A stretch of DNA of 64,000 bases from an uncultured bacterium (GCA_937930175.1 CALGLP010000022.1:2585-66584); one strand, 5' to 3'. Shown: positions 3,335 to 56,563, counted from the stretch's first letter. Numbers and translations are program-made. Notes: generated from the letters alone by a model not told the origin.

Positions 3335-3373
3335 GAAAGGGTAGGGCGTTAAGGCCTGTCTATTATAAATATT

Positions 3374-35228: not shown

Positions 35229-35238
35229 AAAGGCATTT

Positions 35239-35832: not shown

Positions 35833-35851
35833 TGTTTAGGTGAAATAAAGC

Positions 35852-40422: not shown

Positions 40423-40552
40423 AGGAGCGGTGGATCGACTTAAGACGTGATTTGACATTTGACATGCTTGGGAATATCGGGTATCCTGTTTTTTAAGTTT
40501 TGTGATCAATGAGTTATTCACGTTAAAAGCTTTAAAGGAGGGACAATCGAGA

Positions 40553-40849
40553 ATGGATCAGTCTATGCAGGCAACGATTGATGAGCGCGTTGCTGTTATT
40601 CAAGCCATTAAGGAGGAGCTTATTCGGCGTTTAAATCTGCCTTATAAGCCTGAAGATTTACACGAAGATGTTTCGTTGTTTGGGGCAGGGCTAGGCCTGG
40701 ATTCCCTCGATGCCCTCGAGGTTGTTTTGTGTGTTGAAAATTGTTTTGGCATCAGGATCCCGGACAATAATATTGCGATCTTGCGTTCGATCAATACGTT
40801 AGCTGATTATGTTTTAGAGCACAAAGCTAAGCAAGGAGGCGCCGCATGA
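40553..40849 (+). CDS. Acyl carrier protein
   Basis: Phosphopantetheine attachment motif GLDSLDALEVV. AAAGGAGGG RBS 8 nt upstream of ATG 40553 (track start 40502 is inside the RBS region). Stop overlaps next start (ATGA). Confidence 0.75.
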   Translation: MDQSMQATIDERVAVIQAIKEELIRRLNLPYKPEDLHEDVSLFGAGLGLDSLDALEVVLCVENCFGIRIPDNNIAILRSINTLADYVLEHKAKQGGAA

Positions 40850-41955
40850 GAATATCAGCGTTGCGTGACCTCTTGTCCCAGCAGGGGGCTTCGTTTAAAG
40901 AGCGTTTTGGTGTAGAGGTTCCGTCGGTTATCAGTGACCTTAAAACAGAATATCATGCGATTCGTGACCATGTCGGCATTACAGATTTTTCATCCATGCA
41001 GAAGTTTCGGATCACTGCGGAACGGGGAGTTGATTTCTTGGAAAATCTTTTTCCGGGAAATGTAGCGAAGATCCGTTTTTGTCGAGTTTTGCATACTTTT
41101 TTGTCCGATGAAAATGGTAACTTGATCGCAGACTGCTATATTGCTAACAATGATGAAGATTTTATTGTGCTTTGTGACAGCGTTGTTGATGATGCGACGC
41201 TTAAGGCCCTTATGAATAAATATGGCGCTCAGGAGTTTGGGCTTGAGGATATCACCGCGACACATGTTGTTTTTAGCGTCGACGGATATAAAGCCTGGGC
41301 GGTTGTTAAAGAGCTTTGCGGTGCTGATGTCTTAGGCTTGCCGTATCTCTCTGTCGAGACCTATCGCTTTGAAGAAGCCCCGTTTTCTCTTTTCCGAGCT
41401 GGCAAAACATCAGAATTTGGATATTTGATCTTGGCTACTAAGGACATGGGCCCTAAGTTGTTAGCAAAGTTGATTGCGCTTGCGCAAAAAAACGAGGGTG
41501 GCCTTTGTGGGACAACAATTCATGATACCTTGCGTCTTGAGGGGCGCTTCTTTAATATTTTTGCGGAAGGCCTGTCTGTCAAAGATCCGTTGGCCTTGGG
41601 TTTGCAGTGGATGATCGATTTTGATAAGGAGGTCTTTATTGGCCGCGATCCTATTGTTACTAGGCGAGAAAAAGGATTGACGCATAAAATCATCGGTGTC
41701 AAGGCCGAGAGTGCCCTTGAGGATCTTAAAGCCGGCGCTTTCATTTTTCATGAAGGAAAACAAGTCGCTCAAGTGCAGGCTGCCTGCTTTTCGTATGGAC
41801 TCAATGCATGGATTGGCTTGGCGCTTTTTCCAGTTGCTATCGCCTATCCGTATCTGTCTTTTAATCTTGAAAAGCCTGATGGGCTTACGATCGCCACGAT
41901 TGCGATGCCGCCGATCATGCCCAAAAGCTTAACTGTGAAACTCGATGAGCTCTAA
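40846..41955 (+). CDS. Glycine-cleavage T-protein (aminomethyltransferase GcvT/YgfZ/DmdA) family folate-binding protein
   Basis: GcvT-fold signatures HVGITDFSSMQKFRITAERGVDFLENLF and TIHDTLRLEGRFFNIFAEG. Confidence 0.6.
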   Translation: MRISALRDLLSQQGASFKERFGVEVPSVISDLKTEYHAIRDHVGITDFSSMQKFRITAERGVDFLENLFPGNVAKIRFCRVLHTFLSDENGNLIADCYIANNDEDFIVLCDSVVDDATLKALMNKYGAQEFGLEDITATHVVFSVDGYKAWAVVKELCGADVLGLPYLSVETYRFEEAPFSLFRAGKTSEFGYLILATKDMGPKLLAKLIALAQKNEGGLCGTTIHDTLRLEGRFFNIFAEGLSVKDPLALGLQWMIDFDKEVFIGRDPIVTRREKGLTHKIIGVKAESALEDLKAGAFIFHEGKQVAQVQAACFSYGLNAWIGLALFPVAIAYPYLSFNLEKPDGLTIATIAMPPIMPKSLTVKLDEL

Positions 41956-41969
41956 AGTGTGGAGGCATT

Positions 41970-42404
41970 ATGGATAATGCAAAGGGAAGGCTTATTAAGC
42001 GCAAGCTGTCGATCATCCCACGCTTGTGCGATATTGATATGGTTGGTGTGGTTTATAATGTTAATCATTTCAAGTGGTTTGATGAGGGGCGCTTTGCTAT
42101 TATTTCTGAAATGATCAGCTTAGATGAGATCGTTGAAACTGGAATGACGTTTATGATCGCGGAAAATCATTGTAAGTATGAGAACTATGCGACTTATGGC
42201 GAGCCGTTGATTTTATACACCACGCATCGTGTCCAATCTGCTTACCAGGGTCGTTTTGATTTTACGCATTCGATTATCCATGAAAAGAAAAAGACCGAGA
42301 TCGCGAGTGGATCCTCGAGCATGGTGGTCGTTAATTACAAAACACGGCAATTACTTAAAGAACTACCGGATTTTATGTGGCAACGTTATCTTAAAATGCA
42401 ATAG
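41970..42404 (+). CDS. Hotdog-fold acyl-CoA/acyl-ACP thioesterase (4HBT/YbgC-like)
   Basis: 144 aa; IPRLCDIDMVGVVYNVNHFKWFDEGRFAII 4HBT-type pattern. Confidence 0.65.
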   Translation: MDNAKGRLIKRKLSIIPRLCDIDMVGVVYNVNHFKWFDEGRFAIISEMISLDEIVETGMTFMIAENHCKYENYATYGEPLILYTTHRVQSAYQGRFDFTHSIIHEKKKTEIASGSSSMVVVNYKTRQLLKELPDFMWQRYLKMQ

Positions 42405-43151
42405 GTGCCAAATATGCTTCTTGAAGGTCGTATCGCAGTGGTGACTGGGGGTTCTCGGGGGATTGGCCGGGCGATCGTCACCGAATTTGTGCGGAATAAA
42501 GCCAAGGTTTATTTTACCTACCACAAGGATGATGCCGCGGCCAATGAAGTGCGAGATCTCTGCGGTGCTATTCCTGTTAAATGTTCCCAGACGAATTTGG
42601 AAGAGGTCGAAAAGACGATCGCATTTATTTTGGCAGAGAGCGGCAGGATCGATATTTTGGTGAATAATGCGGGCATTACCTCGGATCAGTTTCTGATGAT
42701 GATGCCTTTTGATCAATGGGACAAAGTGATCAATGTTAATCTCAATGGCGCGTATCGCTGGGTCAAGGCGGTGAGCCGGACCATGATCTCTGCGGGAAAA
42801 GGTGTCATCATCAATGTGGCTTCGATCGCGGGTTTGGTGGGTACCCCGGGGCAGAGTAATTATGCAGCCTCCAAAGGGGGCTTGATCGCTTTTACGCGGT
42901 CGCTAGCAGCAGAGCTTGGAACCAAGGGAATTCGTGTGAATGCAATCGTTCCTGGTTTTATTGAAACGGATATGACCGCGGTGATGCCACGGCAGATCAA
43001 AAAGCAAAACATGGAAAGAATTCTTTTAAAGCGATTTGGGAAGCCTGAAGAAATTGCCCCGATCGCTTTATTTTTAGCCTCTGAAGGATCTTCTTATATT
43101 GCAGGTCAAGCAATTGTCGCGGATGGAGGATTGTCGGCCACCGCGGTCTAA
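42405..43151 (+). CDS. fabG: 3-oxoacyl-ACP reductase (SDR family, FabG-like ketoreductase)
   Basis: GRIAVVTGGSRGIGRAIV cofactor motif. Catalytic NVASIAG...YAASKGG (S-Y-K). GTG 42405 or ATG 42414 start. Confidence 0.8.
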   Translation: MPNMLLEGRIAVVTGGSRGIGRAIVTEFVRNKAKVYFTYHKDDAAANEVRDLCGAIPVKCSQTNLEEVEKTIAFILAESGRIDILVNNAGITSDQFLMMMPFDQWDKVINVNLNGAYRWVKAVSRTMISAGKGVIINVASIAGLVGTPGQSNYAASKGGLIAFTRSLAAELGTKGIRVNAIVPGFIETDMTAVMPRQIKKQNMERILLKRFGKPEEIAPIALFLASEGSSYIAGQAIVADGGLSATAV

Positions 43152-43187
43152 TCAAAAATGATGTACATAAGCGATCGTTTTTAAATA

Positions 43188-44135
43188 ATGGCAAAAACTG
43201 TATTCTTATTCCCAGGTCAGGGATCGCAAGAAGTTGGTATGGCGCGCGATTTATTTCATGGTGATGAGTATTTTTTGTCTCTGATTGCTCAGGCGAGCCG
43301 GATCACAGGGGAGGATCTTGCCAGGCTTTGTTTAAAGGGTCCTGAAAAAAGGCTTGCCAATGCGCGTTTTTTGCAGCCCTTGATTGTTGCCGTGTCGCTT
43401 GGCTATCTGAGGCGCGTTCAAGAAAAAGGGATCAAGCCAGATTATTTACTAGGACATTCTTTAGGTGAGATCACTGCCTTGGCTGCGGCAGGCGTTATCA
43501 GCGATGATCTCGCGGTTGTGATGGCTGCTCAGCGTGGGGCGCTTATGGATGAAGCCGCCCAACTTTGCGACGGAGCCATGATGGCGGTATCCGCGCAGGT
43601 CAACGATATTGAAGCCCTTATTGAGGCTCTAGGATTAAGCAATCAAGTGTTCATCAGTAATATTAATTCACCAGAGCAAATAGTCCTTTCGGCAGACAAG
43701 ACATCGTTAAGCATTATGTCCTCCAGGATCCACGCTCAAGGGGGTAAATATAAAATGCTCAATATCGCAGGGCCTTGGCACAGCCCCTATATGGCGAGCG
43801 CTTATGAAAAATTTAAAGTGTGGGCAAAGACCTTGATCCTCCAAGAGCCCTGCACGCCGATTATTTTTAACGCCATGGCCAAACCTGAATCAAATCCGGA
43901 AAAAATAAAAGAATATATAACCGTGCAGATGAAAAGTCCTGTGCATTTTAAGCAGTGCATGGAATATCTTCATCGCGAACCGGTGGAGACTTTTTTAGAA
44001 ATAGGTCCCGGAAGGGTCTTGTCAGGCTTGGTGCGCGCCAATGGTTTTATGCAAGGGACCAAGGTCTTTTGCGTGAATGATCTGCGCGGCGTGGATAACG
44101 CCGCGCGTGAGCTTTCGGTGTCGCGTGACCTTTAG
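43188..44135 (+). CDS. fabD: Malonyl-CoA:ACP transacylase
   Basis: FLFPGQGSQEVGM and active-site GHSLGEITALAAAG. Confidence 0.88.
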   Translation: MAKTVFLFPGQGSQEVGMARDLFHGDEYFLSLIAQASRITGEDLARLCLKGPEKRLANARFLQPLIVAVSLGYLRRVQEKGIKPDYLLGHSLGEITALAAAGVISDDLAVVMAAQRGALMDEAAQLCDGAMMAVSAQVNDIEALIEALGLSNQVFISNINSPEQIVLSADKTSLSIMSSRIHAQGGKYKMLNIAGPWHSPYMASAYEKFKVWAKTLILQEPCTPIIFNAMAKPESNPEKIKEYITVQMKSPVHFKQCMEYLHREPVETFLEIGPGRVLSGLVRANGFMQGTKVFCVNDLRGVDNAARELSVSRDL

Positions 44136-44608
44136 ATGGCGCCTTCCACGCTAGCAAGCATGAGCGTTCCCTTAGCGATGGTTTTCCGACCGGCGATCGC
44201 TTCCACAAGATAGGAATAAAGAACCCCAAATTCTTCTTTGCGTTCTGCGATGAGTTCAAGGGTTTCTCCAGGATATGCGGGAGAAACAAACTTGATATTA
44301 GACGATGCAAGATAAAAAAGGCGCGGTGAGGTTGGTGGCGTCGCGCTCAAGGTCTTTTGGCTAAATCCCATAAGTAACCCGCTTGTTTGCGCTAGGGCGT
44401 CCAGCACGAGCACGCCAGGCATGATCGCTTTTTGTGGAAAATGTCCTTTAAGCCAGGGTTCATCATTGCGTATGGTGCGTTCAGCTACGATCATTTTGTT
44501 GGGGATGAATTTTGTCACGCGATCAACAAAAAGAAAAGGTGGTCTGTGTGGGATGATCGCAAGGATATCGTCTAACCCAAAAATTGTTTTCTTTTCCATG
44601 GCCGGCAT
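44132..44608 (-). CDS. fabZ: 3-hydroxyacyl-ACP dehydratase FabZ (hotdog)
   Basis: IPHRPPFLFVDRV...GHFPQKAIMPGVLVLDALAQTSG. Convergent with fabD, 4-nt overlap. Confidence 0.85.
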   Translation of the reverse strand: MPAMEKKTIFGLDDILAIIPHRPPFLFVDRVTKFIPNKMIVAERTIRNDEPWLKGHFPQKAIMPGVLVLDALAQTSGLLMGFSQKTLSATPPTSPRLFYLASSNIKFVSPAYPGETLELIAERKEEFGVLYSYLVEAIAGRKTIAKGTLMLASVEGAI

Positions 44609-44706
44609 CGATGGTTTTATAAAATATTTATTATTTTAATAACTTAACAAAGATAGTATCATAAGTCAAACAGATTACCGTTAGGCAAAACCTAAAGAGA
44701 TATTAA

Positions 44707-45192
44707 ATGAAGTGCGAAGGCTTGAACTCTACGATTAAACTCGTCATCAGCATATTGATCTGTCAAAGTGCCGGGATCATCGGGTCCTTTTTCACGCGCT
44801 CAGCAATCTCGCCATGGTATGCGTTTCTCAATAAACCAACTTTTAACCCGCCCAACTGGGTCTTTGCGCCGGTATGGACAATTCTTTATACTTTCATGGG
44901 CGTTGCCTTCTTTTTAGTTTGGAGAAAAGGACTTTATGTCCAGGGTGTGAAAAAGGCGCTTCGCGTATTTCTTTTTCAGTTAGTGCTCAACAGCCTTTGG
45001 TCGATCGTCTTTTTTGGCGCGCATTCGATCGTCGGAGGGTTTACGACTATCGTGATCCTTTGGCTAGCCATCGTCTGGACAATCATGGAGTTTTTTTCGG
45101 TCTCAAAATGGGCCGCAGCATTACTGGTCCCGTATATTGCCTGGGTCAGTTTTGCGGCAATTCTAAACGGCGCATTGGTTTTTTTAAATTAA
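44707..45192 (+). CDS. tspO: TspO/MBR family tryptophan-rich sensory protein
   Basis: WYAFLNKPTFNPPNWVFAPVWTILYTFMGVAFFLVWRKG; five TM helices. Confidence 0.8.
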   Translation: MKCEGLNSTIKLVISILICQSAGIIGSFFTRSAISPWYAFLNKPTFNPPNWVFAPVWTILYTFMGVAFFLVWRKGLYVQGVKKALRVFLFQLVLNSLWSIVFFGAHSIVGGFTTIVILWLAIVWTIMEFFSVSKWAAALLVPYIAWVSFAAILNGALVFLN

Positions 45193-45219
45193 AGTAATTT
45201 TTATATTTAGCGGTTTAAA

Positions 45220-45894
45220 ATGGCTTTAATCAAAGAAAAACGCTTTATCATTGTGTTCGCAAAAGAGCCTCAGCGCGGAAAGATTAAAACCCGCCTGAAT
45301 AATGACCTCTCTCAAAAGAGCATTGTGGGTCTTTACAAGGCATTTCTTAAAGATACCGTTGCGGCAATTAACACATATAAAAACGTTCATAAAATAATGG
45401 CTTATTGTTCTGAAGGTCATCCTGTTTATTTAAAAAGGATTGCCCCAGGCTATATTTTATATAAGCAAGAAGGTGTTTCTTTAGGACAAAGACTTTATGC
45501 CGCGTTTGTATTCGCAAAAAATCAAGGAGCCACCAAAATTGTTGTCGTTGGCTCAGACGCGCCGGATCTTCCTTGCGCGTATATTAAAACAGCTTTTCGT
45601 AAGCTTGCGCGGCATGATGTGGTTTTCGGGCCATCCACCGATGGGGGGTATTATTTGGTGGCTTTAAAAAAACCTGTACGGAATATCTTTCAAGGAATAA
45701 AATGGAGCACATCCAGCGTGCTTGCGGAAAGTTTACGCAAGGCCAAAGGGGCTCGTCAAAAAGTGTCTTTGCTCAAACCCTGGCGTGATATAGACCAATA
45801 TGAAGATCTTGAAGCGCTCAGGACATCAGTAAAGAAAAACAAAGCTTGTGCCAGGCATACCCGGGAGTTTCTCTATGGAACGTGTTTCAAGTAA
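45220..45894 (+). CDS. DUF2064 family nucleotidyl/glycosyl-transferase-like protein (TIGR04282-like)
   Basis: RFIIVFAKEPQRGKIKTRL...IVVVGSDAPDLP...VVFGPSTDGGYYLVALKKP. Recognised from memory as the DUF2064 pattern. Confidence 0.55.
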   Translation: MALIKEKRFIIVFAKEPQRGKIKTRLNNDLSQKSIVGLYKAFLKDTVAAINTYKNVHKIMAYCSEGHPVYLKRIAPGYILYKQEGVSLGQRLYAAFVFAKNQGATKIVVVGSDAPDLPCAYIKTAFRKLARHDVVFGPSTDGGYYLVALKKPVRNIFQGIKWSTSSVLAESLRKAKGARQKVSLLKPWRDIDQYEDLEALRTSVKKNKACARHTREFLYGTCFK

Positions 45895-46207
45895 TTTGGT
45901 TATCATTACTCAATATAAATGGGCGGGGCAGATGGGGCCTTTCAAGATCCGTTCGACGTGTGAAGAGTGCGACATGACCACGCATCGGCTTAAAAAGATC
46001 ATAGGGGAATATTTTGCCGCTGAGCCTGTTGCTTTTGAAATTAAGCCATGGCTTGATCATGCGTTTTATTGTTTATCTAAAGGAACCTTTCATCCGCCGA
46101 TCATTTTGATCAACGGAAGAAAATTTTATCAATTTAGCCACGCGCATCCGGCTTTTGATCAAGAAAAGTTTATTGCACGGGTCCACCAGTTGCTGAAAGG
46201 AGAATAA
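45875..46207 (+). CDS. Hypothetical small protein with CEEC motif (possibly thioredoxin/glutaredoxin-like fold)
   Basis: ORF in a different frame, overlapping the 3' end of the previous gene. STCEECDMT and PPIILINGRKF loosely Grx-like. Start ambiguous (45848, 45875 or ~45940). Confidence 0.35.
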   Translation: MERVSSNLVIITQYKWAGQMGPFKIRSTCEECDMTTHRLKKIIGEYFAAEPVAFEIKPWLDHAFYCLSKGTFHPPIILINGRKFYQFSHAHPAFDQEKFIARVHQLLKGE

Positions 46208-46214
46208 ACGTAAT

Positions 46215-47216
46215 ATGGTCATCAACGATATCATTAACAAATCTTTAAACGGGGAAGCATTGGAAGCTTTGGAAATCAAAAAGCTTTTTGAGGTCGATCT
46301 TTTTACCGAAGAAAGCGCGTTGGTGCAGGTGGCGTCTTATCAGAAAAGCCAGAAGGCTTGCCATGGCAAGGCGGAGGTGCATGCGCAGGTGGGGATCAAT
46401 ATTGCGCCGTGTCCCAGGGATTGTTTGTTTTGTGCCTTTGCTGCAGTGAATAAAGTTTTTAAAGAATCATCGCAGTTAACCCCGCAGCAGGCTGTTGAGA
46501 AGTTACGTCAATTTGAGCAAGATGGTGCGAATGCGGTTTTTGTGATGGCCACGGGCAATTATCCGGTGGAAAAGTTTTTTGAGGTTTCGCAGGAGATTCG
46601 TCGCGGTTTAAAACCGCAAACGATCTTGATCGCGAATGTGGGTGATTTTTCGCTCGCTGAAGCCAGGCGGTTAAAAGCGTGCGGGTATGCGGGAATTTAT
46701 CATGCGGTGCGTTTAGGCGAGGGACGAGATACAAAGATCAAGAAAGAAAAACGTTTGGAAACTTTTCGCTATGCGAAAGAAGCAGGACTCCTTTTGGGAA
46801 CATGTCTTGAGCCTGTGGGAACCGAGCATTCGGTGGATGAGCTGGTTGAAAAAACGATCATCACCCGCGATGCCAAACCGGTTTATAGCGGCGCGGCCCG
46901 GCGCATTCCGATCCCTAACACCAAGCTTGGTTCCTATCCGATCGTTAGCGAAGCAAAGATGGCGCATATTTTAGCGGTTGTTCGATTGGCCCTTGGCTAC
47001 GATATTCCCGGTAACTGTACCCATGAGCCCAACGTGATCGGCTGTGCTGCCGGCGCGAACTTGCTTTGGGCGGAAGTCGGCTCTAATCCGCGCGACACGC
47101 ATCAGGAGACCCAGCAGGCACGCGGAATGAACGTGCTTCAGTGCCGGAATGTTCTTAAGGAAGCGCATTGGGACGTGCTCGACGGGCCTTCTGTTTTTTA
47201 TTCGGGAAAAAATTAA
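46215..47216 (+). CDS. Radical SAM protein of the BioB/HydE/PylB-like family
   Basis: Cluster-binding motif NIAPCPRDCLFCAFA (CxxxCxxC). BioB-like LKACGYAGIYHAV...GTCLEPVG layout. 333 aa. Confidence 0.65.
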   Translation: MVINDIINKSLNGEALEALEIKKLFEVDLFTEESALVQVASYQKSQKACHGKAEVHAQVGINIAPCPRDCLFCAFAAVNKVFKESSQLTPQQAVEKLRQFEQDGANAVFVMATGNYPVEKFFEVSQEIRRGLKPQTILIANVGDFSLAEARRLKACGYAGIYHAVRLGEGRDTKIKKEKRLETFRYAKEAGLLLGTCLEPVGTEHSVDELVEKTIITRDAKPVYSGAARRIPIPNTKLGSYPIVSEAKMAHILAVVRLALGYDIPGNCTHEPNVIGCAAGANLLWAEVGSNPRDTHQETQQARGMNVLQCRNVLKEAHWDVLDGPSVFYSGKN

Positions 47217-48007
47217 TCGTTGCTGTAAGAAAGAATGTTGGTAGAGTGGCGGCCGGTCTCTAGGCCTTGATATTGGACCCATTGAAAAGGATAAGTTCTT
47301 TGGTACCAGACAAAGGTTGCGGGAACATATTGATCAAAAACATTATCCAGAATGCCCATATCGGCAATGAGGCGAATTTTGACACAGTCATAACTGCGGC
47401 CGCTGGGTAGTGTAATAGTTTCTTGGCCTTGTTGTTTGACAAGAACTTTGTAGAGAGCGGGTTCGAATGTTATTAAATAAAATGATTGGTTGTTCTTTTC
47501 GTTTAGATAAGGAATAAAGCTTTTCACAAAATTTGTTAAGCAGATTTCATCGATAGTCGGGCCTTTGATCGGAAAAGTGTAGTTTTTAACCCGTGCTCTT
47601 TTTGGGTTACGGCGGTCATCGATCTTAATGGTGATTTTCTTTTTTTCGTAATCAAAGTCTTTTTGGGCCTGGTAGAGCGTGTTACCTTCAAGATCTTTGA
47701 TGACGCACAATGATTTTTTTTGGATCAGGCGTCTGTCTTTGATGGTCCCGGTTGCCTCCGCGAGCCAGTCAACGAGCTCAAAGTGATCAAAAGCGCCGCG
47801 TCCTTTTTTCTGGGCTGTAAAGGAGTCACTGGTAACCGTAAAAGAGTGCGAGGAGGCAGAGCGCGGTGTTTGTGTCGGGAAATTAAGGATCGCGGCCGAT
47901 CCTGCTTGCTGAAAATCAGTCCAAGACGCCTCGGTCGCGAAAGCCGGAACACAAACGCTGATAAGCCAAAGACAAGATAAGAGTATTATTTTCATTGGAA
48001 GTTTCAT
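47213..48007 (-). CDS. Hypothetical secreted protein
   Basis: Signal peptide MKLPMKIILLSCLWLISVCVPAFA. Non-repetitive 264-aa ORF convergent with the radical SAM gene. Confidence 0.5.
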   Translation of the reverse strand: MKLPMKIILLSCLWLISVCVPAFATEASWTDFQQAGSAAILNFPTQTPRSASSHSFTVTSDSFTAQKKGRGAFDHFELVDWLAEATGTIKDRRLIQKKSLCVIKDLEGNTLYQAQKDFDYEKKKITIKIDDRRNPKRARVKNYTFPIKGPTIDEICLTNFVKSFIPYLNEKNNQSFYLITFEPALYKVLVKQQGQETITLPSGRSYDCVKIRLIADMGILDNVFDQYVPATFVWYQRTYPFQWVQYQGLETGRHSTNILSYSND

Positions 48008-48053
48008 CAGTTCATATCATAAGGAAAAGTTTAAAGAAAGCCAACAAGAATTT

Positions 48054-48737
48054 ATGCCTTATTATTCATTGATTGTGATCACTCTTAAAGCGGACAGCGC
48101 GCTTTTGCAGAAAACACGGATTCTGCTTGAGCGTTATCCGGATTTGGAAGTTATCATTGTTCAAGCGGACGGCTCTAAAGAATGTCCTGCGTCCTGGTCT
48201 TCGCGTCTTTGTTTAGCGCAGGCCCCCAAGGGAAGAGGTCTGCAGTGCAACGCGGGTGCGCGTCTTGCCAGCGGCGAGAATTTGATCTTCCTGCATGCAG
48301 ATACGGAGTTACCACAAAAGGCGTTTGAGGTTATTGATAAAGTGTTTCAAGATCCGAAAGTTCAGTTGGCGTGTTTTCGTTTGCGCTTCGATATGGCGCA
48401 TGGACTTCTAAAGTTTTATAGTTTTTTTACACGTTTTGATTCTTTTTGGACGAGTTTTGGAGATCAGGGGATTGTCGTTCGGCGAACATTTTTTGATCGG
48501 GTTAAAGGTTTTCCGGATTGGCCATTGCTTGAGGATGTGGAGTTCTTTAGGCGCGCTAGAAAGTTTACAAAAGTTGTTAAGCTGCCGCTCTCGGTTACGA
48601 CATCGGCTATTCGCTATAAAGAGAATGGAATCTTACGTCAACAACTTAAGAATGCTTGGTTGCTGATCCGATACCGCTTGGGTGCTTCCCCTTGGGACTT
48701 GGTCAAAGAATATGAAAAGAAAAGAGGCGGCCTGTGA
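48054..48737 (+). CDS. Small glycosyltransferase family 2 protein (TIGR04283-like)
   Basis: SLIVITLKADSALL...VIIVQADGS...IFLHADTELP GT2 signature; about 227 aa. Confidence 0.6.
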   Translation: MPYYSLIVITLKADSALLQKTRILLERYPDLEVIIVQADGSKECPASWSSRLCLAQAPKGRGLQCNAGARLASGENLIFLHADTELPQKAFEVIDKVFQDPKVQLACFRLRFDMAHGLLKFYSFFTRFDSFWTSFGDQGIVVRRTFFDRVKGFPDWPLLEDVEFFRRARKFTKVVKLPLSVTTSAIRYKENGILRQQLKNAWLLIRYRLGASPWDLVKEYEKKRGGL

Positions 48738-49501
48738 AATTTAAGATAGCATTTTTTTTGATGATATTTTCTTTGTTTTCTGTTAACGCGCAAGCCCTGA
48801 ACCATGATCTTTTTACGGGTGTGCTTCAAAGTTATGTCACCGAGGGTATGGTTGATTATAAGGGGATGTGCGGGGATATGCGCTTAGCGCAGTACATTGA
48901 TCAAATAAGCCAGGCAGACCCGGAAAAGATTACCGATAACAAGGCGCGCTTAGCTTTTTGGCTGAATGCGTACAATGCCTGGACGCTCAAGATTATTTGT
49001 GATCATTATCCTTTAAAAAGTATTAATGAGCTGCATTCCGGCGGGCTGGCCGTCGGGATGATCCTTAAAACGACCGTTTGGGATAAGAAAATAGTTACAA
49101 TTAATAACCAGAAAACCTCTTTGAGCCGTATCGAACACAAAATCATTCGCCCTGTTTTTAAAGATCCCCGCATTCATTTTGCCGTTGTTTGCGCAGCGAA
49201 GGGCTGTCCACCTCTAAGAAATGAGGCATATGAAGCCAAGGTATTGGATCAGCAGCTTGATAGTCAAGGCAGCATATTTCTTGCTCAAGAGAAGAAGAAC
49301 TCATTTAATTTTGAAACTAAAACAGCCAATATTTCGCCTATTTTCGGTTGGTTCAAGGAAGATTTTGGAGGGAAGCCCGAAGCGGTTTTGCGTTTTATTG
49401 CCGGCTATTTACCTGAAGAAGAAGGGAAGATCCTTTCTCAAGATGCAGCCAGATGGAAAATCAAATATACGTTTTACGATTGGAGCTTAAATGAGCAGTG
49501 A
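48734..49501 (+). CDS. DUF547 domain protein, secreted
   Basis: Signal peptide. DUF547 core LAFWLNAYNAWTLKIICDHYPLKSINEL. Confidence 0.6.
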   Translation: MKFKIAFFLMIFSLFSVNAQALNHDLFTGVLQSYVTEGMVDYKGMCGDMRLAQYIDQISQADPEKITDNKARLAFWLNAYNAWTLKIICDHYPLKSINELHSGGLAVGMILKTTVWDKKIVTINNQKTSLSRIEHKIIRPVFKDPRIHFAVVCAAKGCPPLRNEAYEAKVLDQQLDSQGSIFLAQEKKNSFNFETKTANISPIFGWFKEDFGGKPEAVLRFIAGYLPEEEGKILSQDAARWKIKYTFYDWSLNEQ

Positions 49502-50267
49502 TCTAATCGCGGGAACCGTATTCCTGATACTGTTCCTTATCCTAGAGAACACTTGGCCTTTTTATAAGGGACGCAAGGAAGTCCTTACGCATGGCTTTCG
49601 GAACTTGTCGATTGCTGCTTTGAATGGGCTTATCAATGTTGCTTTTGGGCCTTTAATCATAATGGTCATTTTGTGGGGGCAGGCCAATAAGATTAGTATT
49701 CATCAATGGCTTGGTCTTTCAGGGGCGTTTTCCTGGATCATCATGTTTTTACTTTTTGACGCATGGATGTACATCTGGCATCGTCTTAATCATACATGGT
49801 TTTTTTTGTGGCCTTTTCATGCAATGCACCATGCGGACACACAAATGGACTCGACGACTGCGTTACGATTTCATCCGGCAGAGATCGTTTTCTCGAATAT
49901 TTTAAATATCGGTGTTTTATGTTTGCTTGGCATGAGCTTGGAACAGTTTGTTTTTTATAAAACCGCATTATTTCTGGTTATTATTTTTCATCATAGCAAT
50001 ATCAATTTGAGTGAAAGATTGGATCGCGGGTTGAAAAGATTCATCGTAAGTCCCTCCATGCACAGGGTCCATCATTCCCGGAAAATAGAGGAGCTTAATA
50101 CCAACTACGGTAGTGTTTTTTCTTTTTGGGATAGATTTTTTAAGTCTTTTTGTCAACGGAATGATATGGAAGCCGTTGAGTTCGGCCTTGGCCTGCCGTT
50201 CGACAGAAGCGGGGGAACATTGGTTGGGATGCTGAAGATTCCCTTGGCCAAAAAGATATCACAATGA
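49491..50267 (+). CDS. Fatty acid hydroxylase / sterol desaturase superfamily membrane protein
   Basis: Histidine boxes HRLNH, HAMHHAD and HRVHHS. Confidence 0.75.
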   Translation: MSSDLIAGTVFLILFLILENTWPFYKGRKEVLTHGFRNLSIAALNGLINVAFGPLIIMVILWGQANKISIHQWLGLSGAFSWIIMFLLFDAWMYIWHRLNHTWFFLWPFHAMHHADTQMDSTTALRFHPAEIVFSNILNIGVLCLLGMSLEQFVFYKTALFLVIIFHHSNINLSERLDRGLKRFIVSPSMHRVHHSRKIEELNTNYGSVFSFWDRFFKSFCQRNDMEAVEFGLGLPFDRSGGTLVGMLKIPLAKKISQ

Positions 50268-50323
50268 ACCCCTGATAATACATTTTTTGTTTTAAAAAAG
50301 GCTGTGAAAGAAGAGTTTTTATT

Positions 50324-51226
50324 ATGCGATTAGGACTGTGTTGTAAATTTCTAGAACAACCGATAAAATTTTCTACAACAACAGCGACATCCATTTTGAG
50401 AATGCGGCGTAAAGATGCCCTGGCGAAACTCTCGGGGTTATGTTTTGAAAACGCCTGCGCCTTAGAAAAAGCTATCCAATATTGCGCCGGTCATGGTATC
50501 GGCTCTTTCCGCATCAACAGCCAAATTTTGCCTGTCAAGACCCATCCCAGGGCTGGCTATGACATCAAGGACTTGCCTTTGGCTGAGGAGATCGTCTTGA
50601 AATTCAAAGAATGCGGTCAATGGGCCAAGAAAAACAATGTACGCCTGACGTTTCATCCGGATCAATTTATTGTGCTAAGCTCTAAAAACAATGATGTTGT
50701 TGATCGTTCTATTGTTGACTTAGAATATCATGCCTTGGTGAGTGAATGGGTTGGCGCCGATGTGATTAATATCCATGGGGGAGGGGCTTATGGCGATAAG
50801 AGGTCTGCGCTTAAAAGGGTTATGAAGAATGTTAAGAAGTTGTCTCAAAAAGTACGGTGTCGCCTGACGTTTGAGAATGATGAGAAAGTTTATTCACCGG
50901 TAGATTTGATTCCGCTTTGTCAAGCAACAGGCGCCGGCTTTGTTTATGATGTGCATCATCATCGGTGCCGGCCGGACGGTTGTTCCGTGGAAGAGATAAC
51001 CAAGAAAGCCGTTAAGACCTGGAACCGTGAGCCGTTGTTTCATATTTCTTCGCCTATTCATGGATGGCGGAAAAAGAATACCGCATATCATCATGACTAC
51101 ATCAATATTAAAGATTTTCCTAAATGTTGGCTAGGGCTTGATGTGACCGTTGACATTGAAGCTAAAGCAAAAGAACTTGCCATTTTTCGCTTGCAAAAAG
51201 ATTTAAAAAGAATAGAGAAGAAATGA
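50324..51226 (+). CDS. uvsE: UV damage endonuclease (UvdE/UvsE family)
   Basis: N-terminus MRLGLCCKF, TIM-barrel-type motifs (LTFHPDQF, INIHGGG) typical of UVDE. Confidence 0.7.
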   Translation: MRLGLCCKFLEQPIKFSTTTATSILRMRRKDALAKLSGLCFENACALEKAIQYCAGHGIGSFRINSQILPVKTHPRAGYDIKDLPLAEEIVLKFKECGQWAKKNNVRLTFHPDQFIVLSSKNNDVVDRSIVDLEYHALVSEWVGADVINIHGGGAYGDKRSALKRVMKNVKKLSQKVRCRLTFENDEKVYSPVDLIPLCQATGAGFVYDVHHHRCRPDGCSVEEITKKAVKTWNREPLFHISSPIHGWRKKNTAYHHDYINIKDFPKCWLGLDVTVDIEAKAKELAIFRLQKDLKRIEKK

Positions 51227-52323
51227 CTAACCATTTTTTAACCTGCCAGTGGAAGAATCTTGCCATGGTCAATTTTGAAATGGACCCGGAGCTTCTGTTG
51301 CCTTTTGTGCCAGCTGGTACGGAACTGGATCTTTGGGAAGGTAAAACATTCGTGAGCCTCGTGGGATTTCAATGGGATGATGCTTGTCTTAAGGGTTGCA
51401 AGATCTTCGGCCATAGTAAATTTGAGGAAATGAATTTAAGATTTTATGTCAAGCGCCAAGCGCCTGAGGGTTGGCGTCGGGGCGTTTGTTTTATTCGGGA
51501 ATTCATTGGCTTGCCGGCCGCGGCTTTAGTCGCCAATATCTGTTACGGCGAGAAATTCCGTATCCGTACCGTTGCCTCCTGCCTTGAGCAAAAGGCGCTT
51601 GGCACTTATATTCAATACCGCGTTGAAGATCGTAGGCGGCCAAGCATCCTCGATATGGTGGCAAATTCTGCCATGCAGAATATCCGTTCTGGTAGCTTTG
51701 AAGAATTTATCATCGGCCACGCGTGGGCCTATGCGTCTTTAAAGAATGGTAGGACGCTCGAATACCGCATCGAGCGGCCTGATTGGCATTTTGCCGAAGC
51801 CAATTTTGTGCATGTGGGTTTTGACGGCGCTGGGCTTTATGGTCCGGCCCTGGGACACGTGATCCGCGGAAAACCGCACTCAGCTTTCTTGGTCGATGGT
51901 TCTGCGGTCAAGGTTGTGGCCCCTCAAAAGATCCCTTATGCGATCCGGCATTCGATCGTGATCTTTGACGGTGTTTGCCATTTGTGCAACGGGTTTGTTG
52001 ATTTCATTCTAAAGCATGATAAAAATAAGAACTTTCGTTTATTACCCAACCAGTCATCGGCAGCAGGGAAAATGTTGTCTGTGTTTGGATTAGTTTCGCA
52101 GATCAATGATTCCGTGTATTTGATCCAGGGAGGGAAGGTTTACAAAGAATCGGCAGCCGGTTTGCGGATCTTAAGAACATTAGGGGTTCCTTTTAACTTG
52201 TGTTATGTTTTTATGGTTGTCCCGTCTTTTTTGCGTAATATTGTCTATCGGATCATTGCTCAAAATCGTTATCGTTGGTTTGGAAAAAGAGAATCTTGCA
52301 GGCTTTTACTGCCTCAAGAATAA
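51223..52323 (+). CDS. Fusion: DUF2071 domain + DCC-family thiol-disulfide oxidoreductase (DUF393)
   Basis: N-terminal block FEMDPELLLPFVPAGTELDLWEGKTFVSLVGFQW (DUF2071-like). C-terminal VIFDGVCHLCNGFVDFILKHD (DCC CxxC motif). Confidence 0.55.
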   Translation: MTNHFLTCQWKNLAMVNFEMDPELLLPFVPAGTELDLWEGKTFVSLVGFQWDDACLKGCKIFGHSKFEEMNLRFYVKRQAPEGWRRGVCFIREFIGLPAAALVANICYGEKFRIRTVASCLEQKALGTYIQYRVEDRRRPSILDMVANSAMQNIRSGSFEEFIIGHAWAYASLKNGRTLEYRIERPDWHFAEANFVHVGFDGAGLYGPALGHVIRGKPHSAFLVDGSAVKVVAPQKIPYAIRHSIVIFDGVCHLCNGFVDFILKHDKNKNFRLLPNQSSAAGKMLSVFGLVSQINDSVYLIQGGKVYKESAAGLRILRTLGVPFNLCYVFMVVPSFLRNIVYRIIAQNRYRWFGKRESCRLLLPQE

Positions 52324-52343
52324 TAGAATAGAAAGGAGGCAAG

Positions 52344-52895
52344 ATGAAAACCGTTTTGTTGAGTTTTGCAACATTAGGATTTTTTATGCTGGTGGCCGCA
52401 CCGGTTAAGGCTCAAAAACCAGCGGATATCTACGGATTTACAGTTTCTGACATTGATGGAAAACCTGTGCCGCTTGCTGATTATAAAGGCAAGGTTTTGC
52501 TCATTGTCAACACCGCTTCCCGCTGTGGATTTACATCTCAATATAAAACCTTGGAGGATCTTTATCAAAAATATAAAGAGCGGGGTTTTGTGGTTTTGGG
52601 ATTTCCAGCGAATAATTTTATGGGCCAGGAGCCGGGTAGCAACGAAGAGATCAAGAATTTTTGTTTTATGAATTACAAGACGACCTTTCCCTTGTTTGCC
52701 AAGATCAGCGTCAAGGGTGCGGATATCGCGCCGTTATATGCCTATTTGACAGGTGTTCCCGGCTTTGAAGGAGGCATCATCTGGAATTTCAATAAATTCT
52801 TGATCGATCGCAATGGCAAAGTCGTTGCCCGTTTCGCCAGCCCTGTGGATCCGATGTCTCCAGAGCTGGTCAATGCTGTCGAACAACAATTATAA
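52344..52895 (+). CDS. gpx: Glutathione peroxidase, secreted
   Basis: VNTASRCGFTSQYKTLEDLYQKY...LGFPANNF; signal peptide. Confidence 0.88.
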   Translation: MKTVLLSFATLGFFMLVAAPVKAQKPADIYGFTVSDIDGKPVPLADYKGKVLLIVNTASRCGFTSQYKTLEDLYQKYKERGFVVLGFPANNFMGQEPGSNEEIKNFCFMNYKTTFPLFAKISVKGADIAPLYAYLTGVPGFEGGIIWNFNKFLIDRNGKVVARFASPVDPMSPELVNAVEQQL

Positions 52896-53105
52896 ATGAA
52901 AGGAAAAGTTTCTATGTTTCAGATGATCGAAGTGATTGGGGTGTCCAAGGAAGGTTTTAGTCAGGCGGTTGATCAGGCAGTGAGCGATGTGGCGAAGACA
53001 AAGAAGAATATTCATTTTTTTGAAGTGACAGAGCAACGGGGTTGTGTCCACGAGGGTAAGATCAAAGAGTTTCAGGTCAAGGTTAAGGTGGCATTTATTG
53101 AATAA
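52896..53105 (+). CDS. Dodecin family flavin-binding protein
   Basis: MIEVIGVSKEGFSQAVDQAVSDVAKTKKNIHFFEVTEQRGCVHEGKIKEFQVKVKVAF matches the dodecin pattern. Probable true start ATG 52914. Confidence 0.75.
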   Translation: MKGKVSMFQMIEVIGVSKEGFSQAVDQAVSDVAKTKKNIHFFEVTEQRGCVHEGKIKEFQVKVKVAFIE

Positions 53106-53106
53106 C

Positions 53107-54459: not shown

Positions 54460-54462
54460 CTT

Positions 54463-56320: not shown

Positions 56321-56563
56321 ATGACGCAGGACAAAAACCCTATTCACCCCGTTAGAGAATTAAATGATTCGGCGGTTGGTGTTGACAAGAAGGTTCCACT
56401 TGATGGCGAGTCACCCCTAATGGGAAATCTACGGCTGACGTATTTCTCTAACGGGGTAAAGAAATTTTTTAAAGATTTGTTGGAAAAGCTGGACCAAAAG
56501 ATGCTCGAGAAAGCAAAGACAAAGCCTTGCTGCGCAAAAAGCAAGCCTAAGGATGCCTCGTGA
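56321..56563 (+). CDS. Possible small leader ORF (80 aa) spanning inverted-repeat element copy 2; coding status doubtful
   Basis: GGAGGAG RBS before ATG 56321. C-terminus ...KTKPCCAKSKPKDAS. Its stop overlaps the permease start. Similarity to the analogous ORF at copy 1 is limited to the inverted-repeat arms, so the conservation is at nucleotide level. Confidence 0.2.
   Translation: MTQDKNPIHPVRELNDSAVGVDKKVPLDGESPLMGNLRLTYFSNGVKKFFKDLLEKLDQKMLEKAKTKPCCAKSKPKDAS
56343..56458. repeat. Inverted-repeat element copy 2 (arms TCACCCCGTTAGAGAATT / ATTTCTCTAACGGGGTA, enclosing about 84 nt) in the leader of the ArsP-like permease gene
   Basis: Left arm 56345-56359 and right arm 56444-56456, identical over 14-15 nt to copy 1. 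Interior unrelated to copy 1. Confidence 0.7.

Follow-up and report, generated by a model that had tools for sequence, protein, structure and literature searches.

This locus, from an uncultured bacterium, raises the question of why a radical SAM enzyme resembling biotin synthase (BioB) is encoded between two transferases with arsenosugar-related names. ArsM and ArsS form the experimentally established arsenosugar pathway; the TIGR04282 and TIGR04283 transferases were both named from co-occurrence, and the NCBIfam name “arsenosugar biosynthesis glycosyltransferase” itself derives from comparative genomics. A preliminary description of the sequence had proposed a variant of the three-gene system formed by these transferases and a radical SAM partner, with the BioB-like enzyme standing in for the TIGR04167 protein ArsS. 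From here on, we use “the window” for the whole 64-kb stretch of DNA that was analysed, and rSAM for the radical SAM enzyme encoded at 46215-47216 and its family.

Gene content of the locus

The genes form an eight-gene block, listed here in order and followed by one more distant feature. The DUF3108-like gene is on the opposite strand to the others.

44707-45192, + strand: TspO/MBR membrane protein (PF03073, 160.6 bits)
45220-45894, + strand: TIGR04282/DUF2064 protein, 224 aa, CofC/MobA-like nucleotidyltransferase fold (profile matches)
45875-46207, + strand: predicted thioredoxin-fold protein with C29-E-E-C32, 110 aa (AlphaFold model, Foldseek)
46215-47216, + strand: rSAM, radical SAM enzyme, 333 aa, BioB/HydE/HydG/PylB-type full TIM barrel
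47213-48007, - strand: DUF3108-like exported protein, 264 aa (PF11306, 32.1 bits)
48054-48737, + strand: TIGR04283 short GT2 (GT-A) transferase, soluble, 227 aa (profile matches)
48734-49501, + strand: DUF547 protein with signal peptide (PF04784, 92.9 bits)
49491-50267, + strand: membrane di-iron protein of the fatty-acid hydroxylase/sterol desaturase family (PF04116, 103.3 bits)
35239-35832, + strand: Flavodoxin_5-type protein, a possible accessory of uncertain cassette membership

All open reading frames of the preliminary description were recovered in place, and its identification of TspO, DUF547 and a fatty-acid hydroxylase as flanking genes is confirmed by the Pfam scores listed above. 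The start of the DUF547 gene overlaps the stop of the GT2 gene, and the start of the hydroxylase gene overlaps the stop of DUF547. No hydrophobic segments are present in rSAM, the two transferases or the thioredoxin-like protein. The N-termini of the DUF3108 and DUF547 proteins are signal-peptide-like (hydrophobic in DUF547), and the hydroxylase, with hydrophobic segments and HxxxH/HxxHH His-box motifs, is a membrane protein that also has a weak match to OlsE (79.7 bits).

The DUF3108-like gene, which lies between rSAM and the GT2 gene, converging on the former with a 4-nt overlap and diverging from the latter, is absent from the preliminary description and yet is a conserved part of the cassette, being found at the same position and on the same strand in loci L004, L006, L008, L010 and L095.

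Both transferase assignments hold when searched with the curated models, the second narrowly. The 45220-45894 protein matches TIGR04282 over profile positions 1-189 of 189 with 182.3 bits (curated cut-off 134), and Pfam DUF2064 (PF09837) with 104.6 bits. The 48054-48737 protein matches TIGR04283 over positions 2-221 of 221 with 186.7 bits, marginally above the curated cut-off of 182, and also matches Pfam Glycos_transf_2. TIGR04282 is matched too by 17 homologues encoded beside rSAM homologues, and TIGR04283 by all 26 GT2 proteins (the one in the window plus 25 beside rSAM homologues).

The small CEEC protein of the preliminary description is a real gene at 45875-46207. Gene callers working on identical contigs chose the ATG at 45875, the likely start, which gives a protein of 110 aa whose gene overlaps the stop of DUF2064 by 20 nt and ends 7 nt ahead of rSAM. 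It matches no Pfam or NCBIfam family above threshold (three of four homologues have sub-threshold matches to Thioredoxin_3), and only 20 homologues, all with C29 and C32, were found among 5.8 billion proteins. In its AlphaFold model (pLDDT 88.8), C29 and C32 are at the beginning of helix 30-46 and a cis-Pro-type H73-P74-P75 loop lies just before strand 76-79; thioredoxins make up nearly all of the 50 best Foldseek matches in the PDB (TM 0.5-0.6, with weak E-values of about 1e-3). Judged by its predicted fold, CxxC motif and cis-Pro loop, the protein is a member of the thioredoxin superfamily.

The rSAM family

The product of 46215-47216 matches Pfam Radical_SAM and carries the cluster motif APCPRDCLFCAF, that is C66-x3-C70-x2-C73 (CX3CX2C), with all three cysteines invariant in the rSAM alignment. 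Its structural model (pTM 0.82) has eight strand-helix repeats, and Foldseek matches it to BioB, HydE, HydG and PylB (TM 0.72-0.77), including HydE crystallised with an S-adenosyl-L-cysteine product. With this motif and a (beta/alpha)8 fold, rSAM is a member of the BioB/HydE/PylB/ThiH full-barrel subgroup.

The best curated match is to BioB (TIGR00433), at only 44.9 bits against a cut-off of 225. BioB (PDB 1r30, 8vdw and 8vcw) shares the CX3CX2C motif, the full barrel (TM about 0.7-0.76) and a YHxxxL-type motif region, and is alignable over residues ~17-194, but identity is only 13-16%. The auxiliary [2Fe-2S] cluster of BioB is bound by C97, C128, C188 and R260 (E. coli numbering), and these ligand positions are not conserved in rSAM: C97 falls in VFVMAT, C128 corresponds to the invariant N141, C188 aligns with G195, two residues before C197, and the R260 region is not alignable. 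The auxiliary-cluster cysteines, which the preliminary description had singled out for checking, are thus replaced at C97 and C128, in agreement with its view of an enzyme that is BioB-like but not biotin synthase. Although JGI pipelines call many homologues “biotin synthase” and BioB is the top match among curated models and PDB sequences, it is hardly credible that rSAM is simply a biotin synthase, given its low score, the absent ligands and the lack of bio genes nearby (58777-59946 encodes a generic aminotransferase, not BioF). A profile search of 1.84 billion representatives returned only 794 matches at E<=0.001, and so does not reach the large BioB family.

HydE (TIGR03956; PDB 3ciw and 5few) is an equally good fold match (TM 0.73-0.76), but scores 18.6 bits against a cut-off of 254.6, and differs in its extra cysteines; nor does rSAM have a hydG, hydF or hydrogenase context. 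The aminofutalosine synthase MqnE, whose reaction adds a 5'-deoxyadenosyl radical to the substrate, shares the structural subgroup and has weak N-terminal similarity (26.9 bits against a cut-off of 560, E 2e-6), but rSAM in the window has no menaquinone (mqn) context. There is no match to the ArsS model TIGR04167 (cut-off 300) at E<=0.01. ArsL, a radical SAM enzyme used in C-As bond formation in arsinothricin biosynthesis, resembles rSAM in having three additional conserved cysteines; it is however ~450 aa long, carries the cluster motif around residue 209 and has an RCCLKC tail at the C-terminus, whereas rSAM ends in ...DGPSVFYSGKN and has its extra cysteines inside the barrel domain. Model scores or the absent tail rule out HydE, ArsS and ArsL as the identity of rSAM.

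At E<=1e-30 the family comprises 205 clusters (50% identity) among the 1.84 billion representatives, with 60-70% identity across phyla, Thermoplasmatales archaea included. rSAM is a small, isolated and strongly conserved uncharacterised family with a BioB/HydE-type fold and no dedicated curated model. Three further cysteines, C197, C268 and C310, on barrel strands 5 and 7 and the C-terminal helix, are invariant in 24 clade members; the full triad is confined to the core clade, being found in only 11 of 90 aligned sequences (89 diverse representatives and the one from the window). Fusions occur in distant paralogues (28-31% identical), the partner being a cysteine-desulfurase-type class V aminotransferase, an ArsM-type Methyltransf_31 domain or a peroxiredoxin.

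Linkage of rSAM with the transferases

Across 82 independent loci from at least seven phyla that carry the rSAM family, 24 have a TIGR04283 gene and 16 a TIGR04282 gene no more than 5 kb from the rSAM homologue. By our own rough estimate, assuming ~1 TIGR04283 gene per ~3000-gene genome and ~10 genes per 10-kb span, fewer than one locus would be expected by chance, so the grouping is far beyond coincidence. Four distinct gene orders show the adjacency, with genes that often overlap or are tightly spaced, and the linked loci belong to Planctomycetota, Omnitrophota, Nitrospirota, Armatimonadota, Bacillota, Desulfobacterota and others. Other genes within 5 kb encode rhodanese (17/82), a CCG/4Fe-4S protein (13/82), a MerA-like FAD disulfide reductase (12/82), peroxiredoxin (7/82) and C_GCAxxG_C_C (7/82). 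About two thirds of rSAM homologues (~58/82) have no transferase pair within 10 kb, and some of these lie beside metal-uptake or regulator genes (TonB/ExbBD, Fur, FeoB, DtxR).

Leaving TspO aside, the block has a seven-gene core that is found again in MAGs of Planctomycetales and Omnitrophota; L004, L008 and L010/L096 keep its order, and L006 and L040 do so in part. The DUF547 protein is 56-77% identical across cassettes. TspO is an accessory member of the cassette: it also lies upstream in L010/L096, whereas L095 has a second DUF3108 paralogue in its place.

ArsS in the rSAM slot

In locus L095, a single 8.4-kb metagenome contig, an orthologous cassette carries a bona fide ArsS (400.3 bits, cut-off 300) in the slot of rSAM. 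Its gene order is TIGR04282 (183 bits), small thioredoxin-like protein, ArsS, DUF3108 on the opposite strand, TIGR04283 (222 bits), DUF547 and hydroxylase. The L095 proteins are 45-67% identical to those of the cassettes with rSAM, with the exception of DUF3108 (35-38% to the window and L004, and 51-53% to L006, L008 and L010), while identity falls to only 25-40% for the transferases of other gene orders. The window resembles the ArsS/TIGR04282/TIGR04283 cassette in having both transferases above curated cut-offs with a radical SAM gene between, but differs in that this gene belongs to an unrelated family, that no ArsM is nearby, and that four more conserved genes are present (thioredoxin-like, DUF3108, DUF547 and fatty-acid hydroxylase).

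The recurrent adjacency and the L095 slot swap support the proposed variant of the three-gene system. The accompanying claim, that rSAM stands in for the TIGR04167 partner, is backed by both results, although the replacement is not a clean one: in L049 and L070 ArsS and rSAM both lie near the transferase pair and hence cannot be plain equivalents, and for about two thirds of the family there is no pair within 10 kb. The ArsS proteins of L049, L070 and L095 are genuine (358-411 bits against TIGR04167), and that of L049 is an ArsS-ArsM fusion 2.7 kb from rSAM. ArsS lies within 10 kb of the rSAM family in only 2 of the 82 loci.

Possible functions of the cassette

The occurrence of rSAM in the ArsS slot points to a parallel pathway whose product is probably a modified envelope lipid or sugar. 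The explanation we favour, with about even confidence, is that 45220-50267 is one cassette, in which rSAM is an alternative radical module of the TIGR04282/TIGR04283 system that adenosylates a heteroatom on the way to an envelope product. ArsS is known to adenosylate DMAs(III) (PMC13598754; bioRxiv 10.64898/2026.04.29.721666). The cytoplasmic part would consist of the CofC-like TIGR04282 protein, the thioredoxin-fold CxxC protein, rSAM and the TIGR04283 GT2, and the envelope part of the exported DUF3108 and DUF547 proteins and the membrane di-iron hydroxylase. By analogy with ArsS and dimethylarsenite, and with the structural neighbour HydE, which couples the adenosyl radical to a sulfur atom, rSAM would make an unusual building block, most likely by joining a 5'-deoxyadenosyl radical to a substrate with a heteroatom of S, Se or As type. 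From there the modified ribosyl or head group would be moved by the two transferases onto an acceptor, and finishing or placing the product, probably a lipid, would fall to the envelope proteins. Gene identities, family boundaries, recurrent linkage and the slot swap are shown directly, while it is by these analogies that we infer the chemistry, the substrate and a lipid as the product; the rSAM sequence has no feature that tells radical addition from H-abstraction chemistry; our best guess is radical adenosylation or a sulfur/selenium-type modification feeding both transferases. It is conceivable, if unlikely, that rSAM adenosylates a chalcogen or other heteroatom donor in a new radical reaction, giving a 5'-substituted 5'-deoxyadenosine and, via TIGR04282 and TIGR04283, 5-thio-, 5-seleno- or similar ribosyl lipids. 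Such lipids would be a previously unseen class, the sulfur/selenium counterpart of arsenosugar lipids, and the “arsenosugar” transferase cassette would serve envelope modification in general, with radical modules that can be exchanged and, in this case, a link to light and oxidative stress.

A rather unlikely alternative is that rSAM is a BioB-type enzyme that inserts sulfur (or selenium) after H abstraction from its substrate, which may be a lipid or sugar made as an intermediate within the cassette. C197, C268 and C310 would then bind a putative auxiliary Fe-S cluster, and partner proteins (rhodanese, cysteine desulfurase, thioredoxin-like protein and disulfide reductase) would resupply it. 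The best sequence and fold relatives of rSAM are biotin synthases, among them the anaerobe-type 8vdw, the three extra cysteines are invariant in the clade, with C197 close to the position of BioB C188, sulfur-trafficking and thiol-redox genes are common neighbours, one paralogue is fused to a cysteine-desulfurase-type domain, and the thioredoxin-fold CxxC gene is directly upstream of rSAM in the window. Set against this, the C97 and C128 positions are not Cys, the triad is missing in most of the wider family, and sulfur insertion leaves unexplained why the adenosylating ArsS fits the same slot. The slot shared with ArsS also speaks against an independent housekeeping role in anaerobes, for example HydE-like maturation of a metal cofactor, with rSAM merely co-located or co-regulated with the pair in some lineages. 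The many homologues without the pair, contexts such as TonB/ExbBD/TonB-dependent receptor/DUF4198, Fur with NifX-like proteins, and FeoB/DtxR, and a cross-phylum identity that suggests a strongly constrained core function are in its favour, but tightly spaced TIGR04283 adjacency in 24 of 82 loci, in four arrangements and at least seven phyla, makes it quite unlikely, and a family of 205 clusters among 1.84 billion representatives is not a general housekeeping gene.

That the cassette is a genuine arsenic pathway to an arsenosugar or arsenolipid, with the extra rSAM cysteines binding As(III) like those of ArsM and ArsL, appears quite unlikely. The transferase names, ArsS in L095 and L049, and the three-Cys As(III) sites documented for ArsL speak for it, as does an ArsP_1-family permease 9 kb downstream in the window and also near rSAM in L011 and L022; by its scores, however, this permease is nearer to the families of Cu/Zn efflux and SaoE proteins than to that of arsenic efflux. 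No homologue of ArsM or ArsS was found in six frames of the window, nor were ArsC and ArsR, and the sole class I methyltransferase (35852-36646) scores as UbiE/MenG (216.7 bits). ArsS is rarely near rSAM, and the cassette is surrounded by UV and oxidative-stress genes (a stress island), not ars genes.

Surroundings of the cassette

Location in a UV/oxidative-stress island makes a putative role of the cassette in envelope protection plausible. The preliminary description had joined the cassette with the adjacent rSAM-KS operon into a ~15-kb lipid-modification neighbourhood, an idea that is borne out only in part. Their adjacency does recur, in L094 and L095, but the whole rSAM-KS block is absent from the syntenic relative L004 and from the sequenced flanks of L010/L096, and we infer a lipid product for the cassette itself. 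In L011 and L022/L090 the gene immediately upstream of the rSAM homologue encodes a homologue of the Flavodoxin_5-type protein.

Composition of the cassette

All of the ORFs that the preliminary description had placed in this region are present at the coordinates it gave, and its reading of the flanking genes (TspO, DUF547 and a fatty-acid hydroxylase) agrees with ours. Its two transferase assignments are borne out by curated models: the DUF2064 protein matches TIGR04282 with 182.3 bits against a cut-off of 134 (Pfam DUF2064, 104.6 bits), and the short GT2 matches TIGR04283 with 186.7 bits, a small margin over the cut-off of 182, as well as Glycos_transf_2. The cassette and its accessory TspO gene are composed as follows.

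44707-45192: TspO
45220-45894: DUF2064 protein (TIGR04282)
from ATG at 45875: CEEC small protein, 110 aa
46215-47216: radical SAM protein (rSAM), 333 aa, with the CX3CX2C motif APCPRDCLFCAF (C66/C70/C73) and a Pfam Radical_SAM match
47213-48007, minus strand: DUF3108-like protein, 264 aa, between rSAM and GT2, missed at the first reading
48054-48737: GT2 (TIGR04283)
48734-49501: DUF547 protein
49491-50267: fatty-acid (FA) hydroxylase family protein

The start given for the small protein is the likeliest one, based on the choice of gene callers on identical contigs; its gene shares 20 nt with the 3' end of the DUF2064 gene and stops 7 nt short of the rSAM start. Hydrophobic segments, along with His boxes, are seen in the hydroxylase, and signal-peptide-like N-termini in the DUF3108 and DUF547 proteins, whereas no hydrophobic segment was found in the rSAM, either transferase or the small protein. 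This would place synthesis in the cytoplasm and later steps in the membrane or periplasm. A promoter and terminator scan of 44000-51500 gave the same counts as the shuffled expectation.

The small protein is modelled with a thioredoxin fold (pLDDT 88.8), and nearly all of its 50 best Foldseek matches are thioredoxins (TM 0.5-0.6), with C29-x-x-C32 opening helix 1, and an HPP motif ahead of the third strand. Its profile has no meaningful match among PDB sequences, so that the fold is shown via the model. The protein is rare: a search of 5.8 billion proteins gave only 20 homologues, of which one carries a fused glutaredoxin domain. Distant homologues in archaea are solitary genes, and in Omnitrophota CP070807.1 (L114:7355-8333) an overlapping pair of DUF2064 and small thioredoxin-like genes has no adjacent rSAM or GT2; together these refute a dedicated rSAM partner, and the small protein looks like a recruited redox module. 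The neighbours of the CP070807.1 pair are dodecin, 4HBT, rubrerythrin and 2-thiouracil-desulfurase-like genes.

A small and isolated radical SAM family

By membership tests, the radical enzyme of the cassette is none of BioB, HydE, ArsS and ArsL. Its best curated match, BioB, scores 44.9 bits where the equivalog cut-off is 225, which rules out a biotin synthase identity; MqnE, HydE, CofH and PylB are rejected at 17-27 bits against cut-offs of 250-560. A curated-model search gave no TIGR04167 (ArsS) match for the protein, and ArsL is rejected on an absent RCCLKC tail and an unlike architecture. Searched against the PDB, a profile of 24 family members retrieves biotin synthases (only at E 1e-8 to 3e-5) and, more weakly, HydE (about 4e-4). 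The proposal that the enzyme is BioB-like and not simply BioB is upheld at the auxiliary-ligand positions C97 and C128, which are non-Cys whether the profile is aligned with PDB entries or with the E. coli BioB sequence; at the C128 position the family has the invariant Asn N141, and C188 is aligned with G195. No biotin genes were found near the rSAM, and a candidate BioF at 58777-59946 is a generic class I/II aminotransferase instead.

The AlphaFold model is a full eight-stranded barrel (pLDDT 77, pTM 0.82), for which BioB, HydE, HydG and PylB are the best structural matches (TM 0.72-0.77), with ThiH lower (0.67), at 13-19% identity. The family is small and isolated, comprising about 200 clusters at 50% identity: against 1.84 billion representatives its profile finds 205 clusters at E<=1e-30 and just 794 at E<=0.001, and thus does not reach the large BioB family. 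Core-clade members from Nitrospirota, Planctomycetota, Omnitrophota, Desulfobacterota, Bacillota and Thermoplasmatales archaea are 60-70% identical. This clade has three further invariant cysteines outside the cluster motif, C197, C268 and C310; this triad was rejected as a family-wide trait, being found in only 11 of 90 aligned sequences (that of the window and 89 diverse relatives), and is clade-specific. Residues conserved family-wide include N141, Y162-H163, R166, E169, E199 and P292-R293.

No Pfam or NCBIfam model is specific to the family, and its members are labelled "biotin synthase" by JGI pipelines and "radical SAM protein" by NCBI. Distant paralogues at 28-31% identity (P0278, P0274, P0272, P0227, P0232, P0224 and P0164) are fused to other domains, namely cysteine-desulfurase-type class V aminotransferase, ArsM-type Methyltransf_31, AhpC/TSA peroxiredoxin and PadR-type regulators; one of these paralogues is a tandem duplication.

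Linkage to the transferase pair

Neighbours were counted at 82 non-redundant loci, from 80 genome loci carrying the rSAM family plus several contigs found by exact look-up; ORFs were called and then searched with the window proteins and iterated profiles.

Genes within 5 kb of the rSAM gene (loci out of 82)
TIGR04283-type GT2: 24
Rhodanese: 17
DUF2064 (TIGR04282): 16
GlcF/GlpC-like CCG Fe-S protein: 13
MerA-like FAD disulfide reductase (NF004991, 853 bits): 12
Class I methyltransferase: 8
FA hydroxylase: 7
Peroxiredoxin: 7
C_GCAxxG_C_C protein: 7
DUF547: 6

All 26 GT2 proteins (that of the window and 25 neighbours) match TIGR04283, and all 17 DUF2064 proteins (that of the window and 16 neighbours) match TIGR04282; two of the transferase neighbours are fusions of the two families. 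Besides the order seen in the window, the pair and the rSAM occur in other arrangements:

Bacillota: rhodanese, GCAxxG, GT2, DUF2064, rSAM
Nitrospirota: GT2, rSAM, CCG protein, DUF2064
Armatimonadota and others: rSAM, FAD reductase, GT2, DUF2064

Two cultured organisms, Desulfoscipio geothermicus DSM 3669 and Desulfallas sp. Bu1-1, have the first of these. With independent arrangements in at least seven phyla, the linkage is explained neither by chance nor by simple inheritance of one operon.

For many family members the pair is not found close by, and metal-uptake genes and regulators lie alongside. At the loci of P0020 and P0053 (L089 and L090), where the pair is absent, the rSAM homologue adjoins metal-related genes, one context holding TonB/ExbB/ExbD, a TonB-dependent receptor and DUF4198, and the other Flavodoxin_5, Fur, DUF5320 and two NifX-like (Nitro_FeMo-Co) genes. 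In Thermoplasmatales loci it adjoins FeoB and DtxR-like genes.

Exchange of the radical module with ArsS

The window-type order (DUF2064, small CxxC protein, rSAM, DUF3108 on the opposite strand, GT2, DUF547, FA hydroxylase) is repeated in L004, with an rSAM 82% identical to that of the window, and also in a Planctomycetales MAG (L008) and an Omnitrophota MAG (L010/L096), and partly in L006 and L040. A further lineage (L118/L119) has ApbA, DUF2064, small protein and rSAM. Searching metagenome contigs with an alignment of DUF3108-like proteins recovered L095, an 8.4-kb contig with the order and strands of the window-type cassette but with ArsS at the rSAM position:

3973-4650: TIGR04282, 183.4 bits
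3632-4003: small thioredoxin-like protein, no family match
2679-3635: ArsS (TIGR04167), 400.3 bits, cut-off 300
1882-2700, opposite strand: DUF3108-like protein, no family match
1189-1860: TIGR04283, 222.3 bits
425-1192: DUF547 protein
from position 1: FA hydroxylase, cut by the contig end

The identity of L095 proteins to those of cassettes with the BioB-like rSAM is 43-53% for DUF2064, 45-61% for GT2, 49-62% for DUF547, 51-67% for the small protein and 35-53% for DUF3108. Comparisons of the BioB-like cassettes with one another span these values, while transferases of other arrangements show only 25-40%. The rSAM slot is one that ArsS also occupies, and this one contig indicates that the radical module was exchanged for a non-orthologous one inside a single cassette lineage. 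It also gives the strongest support to the earlier suggestion that a BioB-like rSAM is the partner in a variant of the three-gene system.

ArsS and the BioB-like rSAM are not strict alternatives, since two loci carry both. L049, of a Nitrospiraceae MAG, has GT2, rSAM and CCG protein followed, 2.7 kb downstream of the rSAM, by a single 674-aa ORF (L049:5707-7728) fusing ArsS (TIGR04167, 358.5 bits) with an ArsM-like arsenite methyltransferase (146.5 bits), and in L070 ArsS (410.9 bits) lies 4.8 kb from the rSAM. The DUF3108-like protein was rejected as a cassette marker, most of its 23 metagenome homologues lying outside any cassette or on short contigs.

Genomic surroundings

The cassette is preceded and followed by these groups of genes:

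35852-36646: UbiE/MenG-type methyltransferase, preceding rSAM-KS
36643-40422: rSAM-KS, 1259 aa, a fusion of B12-binding radical SAM and FabF-like ketosynthase
40502-44608: ACP, GcvT-like aminomethyltransferase, 4HBT thioesterase, FabG, FabD and convergent FabZ
50324-55386: UV/oxidative-stress island of UvdE/UvsE, DUF2071-DCC1, GPx, class II photolyase and DUF523

The rSAM-KS protein has weak similarity (48 bits) to the ladderane-type "lipid biosynthesis B12-binding/radical SAM" family. On either side of the cassette, the window and L004 share their gene order, with NUDIX and ApbA upstream, and DUF2071-DCC, GPx, photolyase, DUF523, a PG-binding protein, the ArsP_1 permease and two small ORFs downstream. 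L004 is without the window block of about 10.5 kb at 34653-45192 that holds flavodoxins, the UbiE-type methyltransferase, rSAM-KS, ACP, GcvT-like protein, thioesterase, FabG, FabD, FabZ and TspO, with a Flavodoxin_2 homologue retained upstream of NUDIX. The cassette can thus occur without the rSAM-KS operon. The association of the two, part of the lipid-modification neighbourhood proposed earlier, does recur, as FabZ and FabD again adjoin the cassette in L095 and a DUF3108-like gene adjoins FabZ, FabD, FabG, thioesterase and GcvT-like genes in L094, but the case of L004 shows that it is not obligatory.

Downstream, the UvdE/UvsE endonuclease scores 183.8 bits and the class II photolyase 642.9 bits; the island is kept in L004, minus UvdE and plus a dodecin gene. 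The DUF2071 protein is a fusion with a DCC1-like thiol-disulfide oxidoreductase, and the DUF523 protein is of the 2-thiouracil desulfurase family. The ArsP_1-family permease (56560-57519) lies 9 kb downstream of the cassette and is, by curated models, nearer to Cu/Zn efflux and SaoE than to the arsenic efflux family. Close homologues of it (about 420 bits), with a Flavodoxin_5 gene, adjoin the rSAM homologue in two MAGs (L011:4768-5739 and L022:3515-4495).

Proposed function

From sequence, fold and gene context, on which every functional statement here is based, we infer that the rSAM is a functional partner of the TIGR04282/TIGR04283 pair. MqnE, a weak sequence relative of the rSAM, incorporates the adenosyl radical. 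HydE, among its best structural neighbours, forms a C5'-S bond, its final product being S-adenosyl-L-cysteine (from the title of PDB entry 5few), and ArsS joins the 5'-deoxyadenosyl radical and dimethylarsenite into 5'-deoxy-5'-dimethylarsinoyl-adenosine (PMC13598754; bioRxiv 10.64898/2026.04.29.721666). The rSAM of the window would, by analogy, probably supply an adenosyl-derived or otherwise heteroatom-modified precursor, which the CofC-like and GT-A enzymes would then pass to an acceptor, and the hydroxylase, DUF547 and DUF3108 proteins may act on the product in the envelope. Rhodanese, MerA-like reductase, CCG, peroxiredoxin, GCAxxG and thioredoxin-like neighbours, together with the paralogue fusions, suggest a chemistry of sulfur, selenium, metalloids or thiol redox without singling out one substrate.

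The main rival to such a precursor-supplying role is a BioB-like sulfur insertion, drawing on a putative auxiliary cluster that the Cys triad of the core clade might hold. A genuine arsenic role is less likely. Current NCBIfam names confirm the three-family system named in the preliminary description (TIGR04282 and TIGR04283 are "arsenosugar biosynthesis glycosyltransferase" and TIGR04167 is "ArsS"), and by curated tests the cassette belongs to the TIGR04282/TIGR04283 system; measured against the arsenosugar pathway as defined by experiment it does not qualify, because ArsS and ArsM are absent from the whole 64-kb window, and its surroundings are a UV/oxidative-stress island, not an ars operon. 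Also less likely is a housekeeping role of the rSAM unrelated to the transferases, for which the many members set beside metal-uptake genes and regulators, away from the pair, can be cited.

To our knowledge, only ArsM and ArsS have been experimentally shown in the arsenosugar route, and a search of the available literature library found no functional study on TIGR04282, TIGR04283, DUF2064, bacterial DUF547 or this rSAM family. The "arsenosugar" transferases are uncharacterised, yet the name is attached to genes in many genomes whose owners may not produce arsenosugars at all, and this annotation should not be read as evidence of arsenic metabolism. What we rate as new is an uncharacterised radical SAM family, here defined for characterisation, within a known but poorly understood system. 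A cassette that accepts ArsS or an unrelated rSAM offers a concrete route to what the transferases really handle, and the two cultured carriers make the question directly testable.

Other features of the window

The Flavodoxin_5-type protein at 35239-35832 has a signal-peptide-like N-terminus (…VFVFLCALMVSSAWAQEQ…), unusual in an electron donor; its L090 homologue is called as 145 aa, with the N-terminal signal-like part absent. Two proteins have sub-threshold matches to Chlamydia-associated models, at 31973-32902 to LpxG (116 bits against a cut-off of 350) and at 60610-61410 to the CPn0927/CPn0928 hydrolase family (42 bits); both weakly hint that the window comes from the Chlamydiota/PVC group. 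Scans of the 64-kb window for tRNA and Rfam families found none. Nearly all genes across 1-64000 are on the plus strand, and GC skew is above 0 in every 2-kb bin, so that the cumulative skew climbs monotonically.
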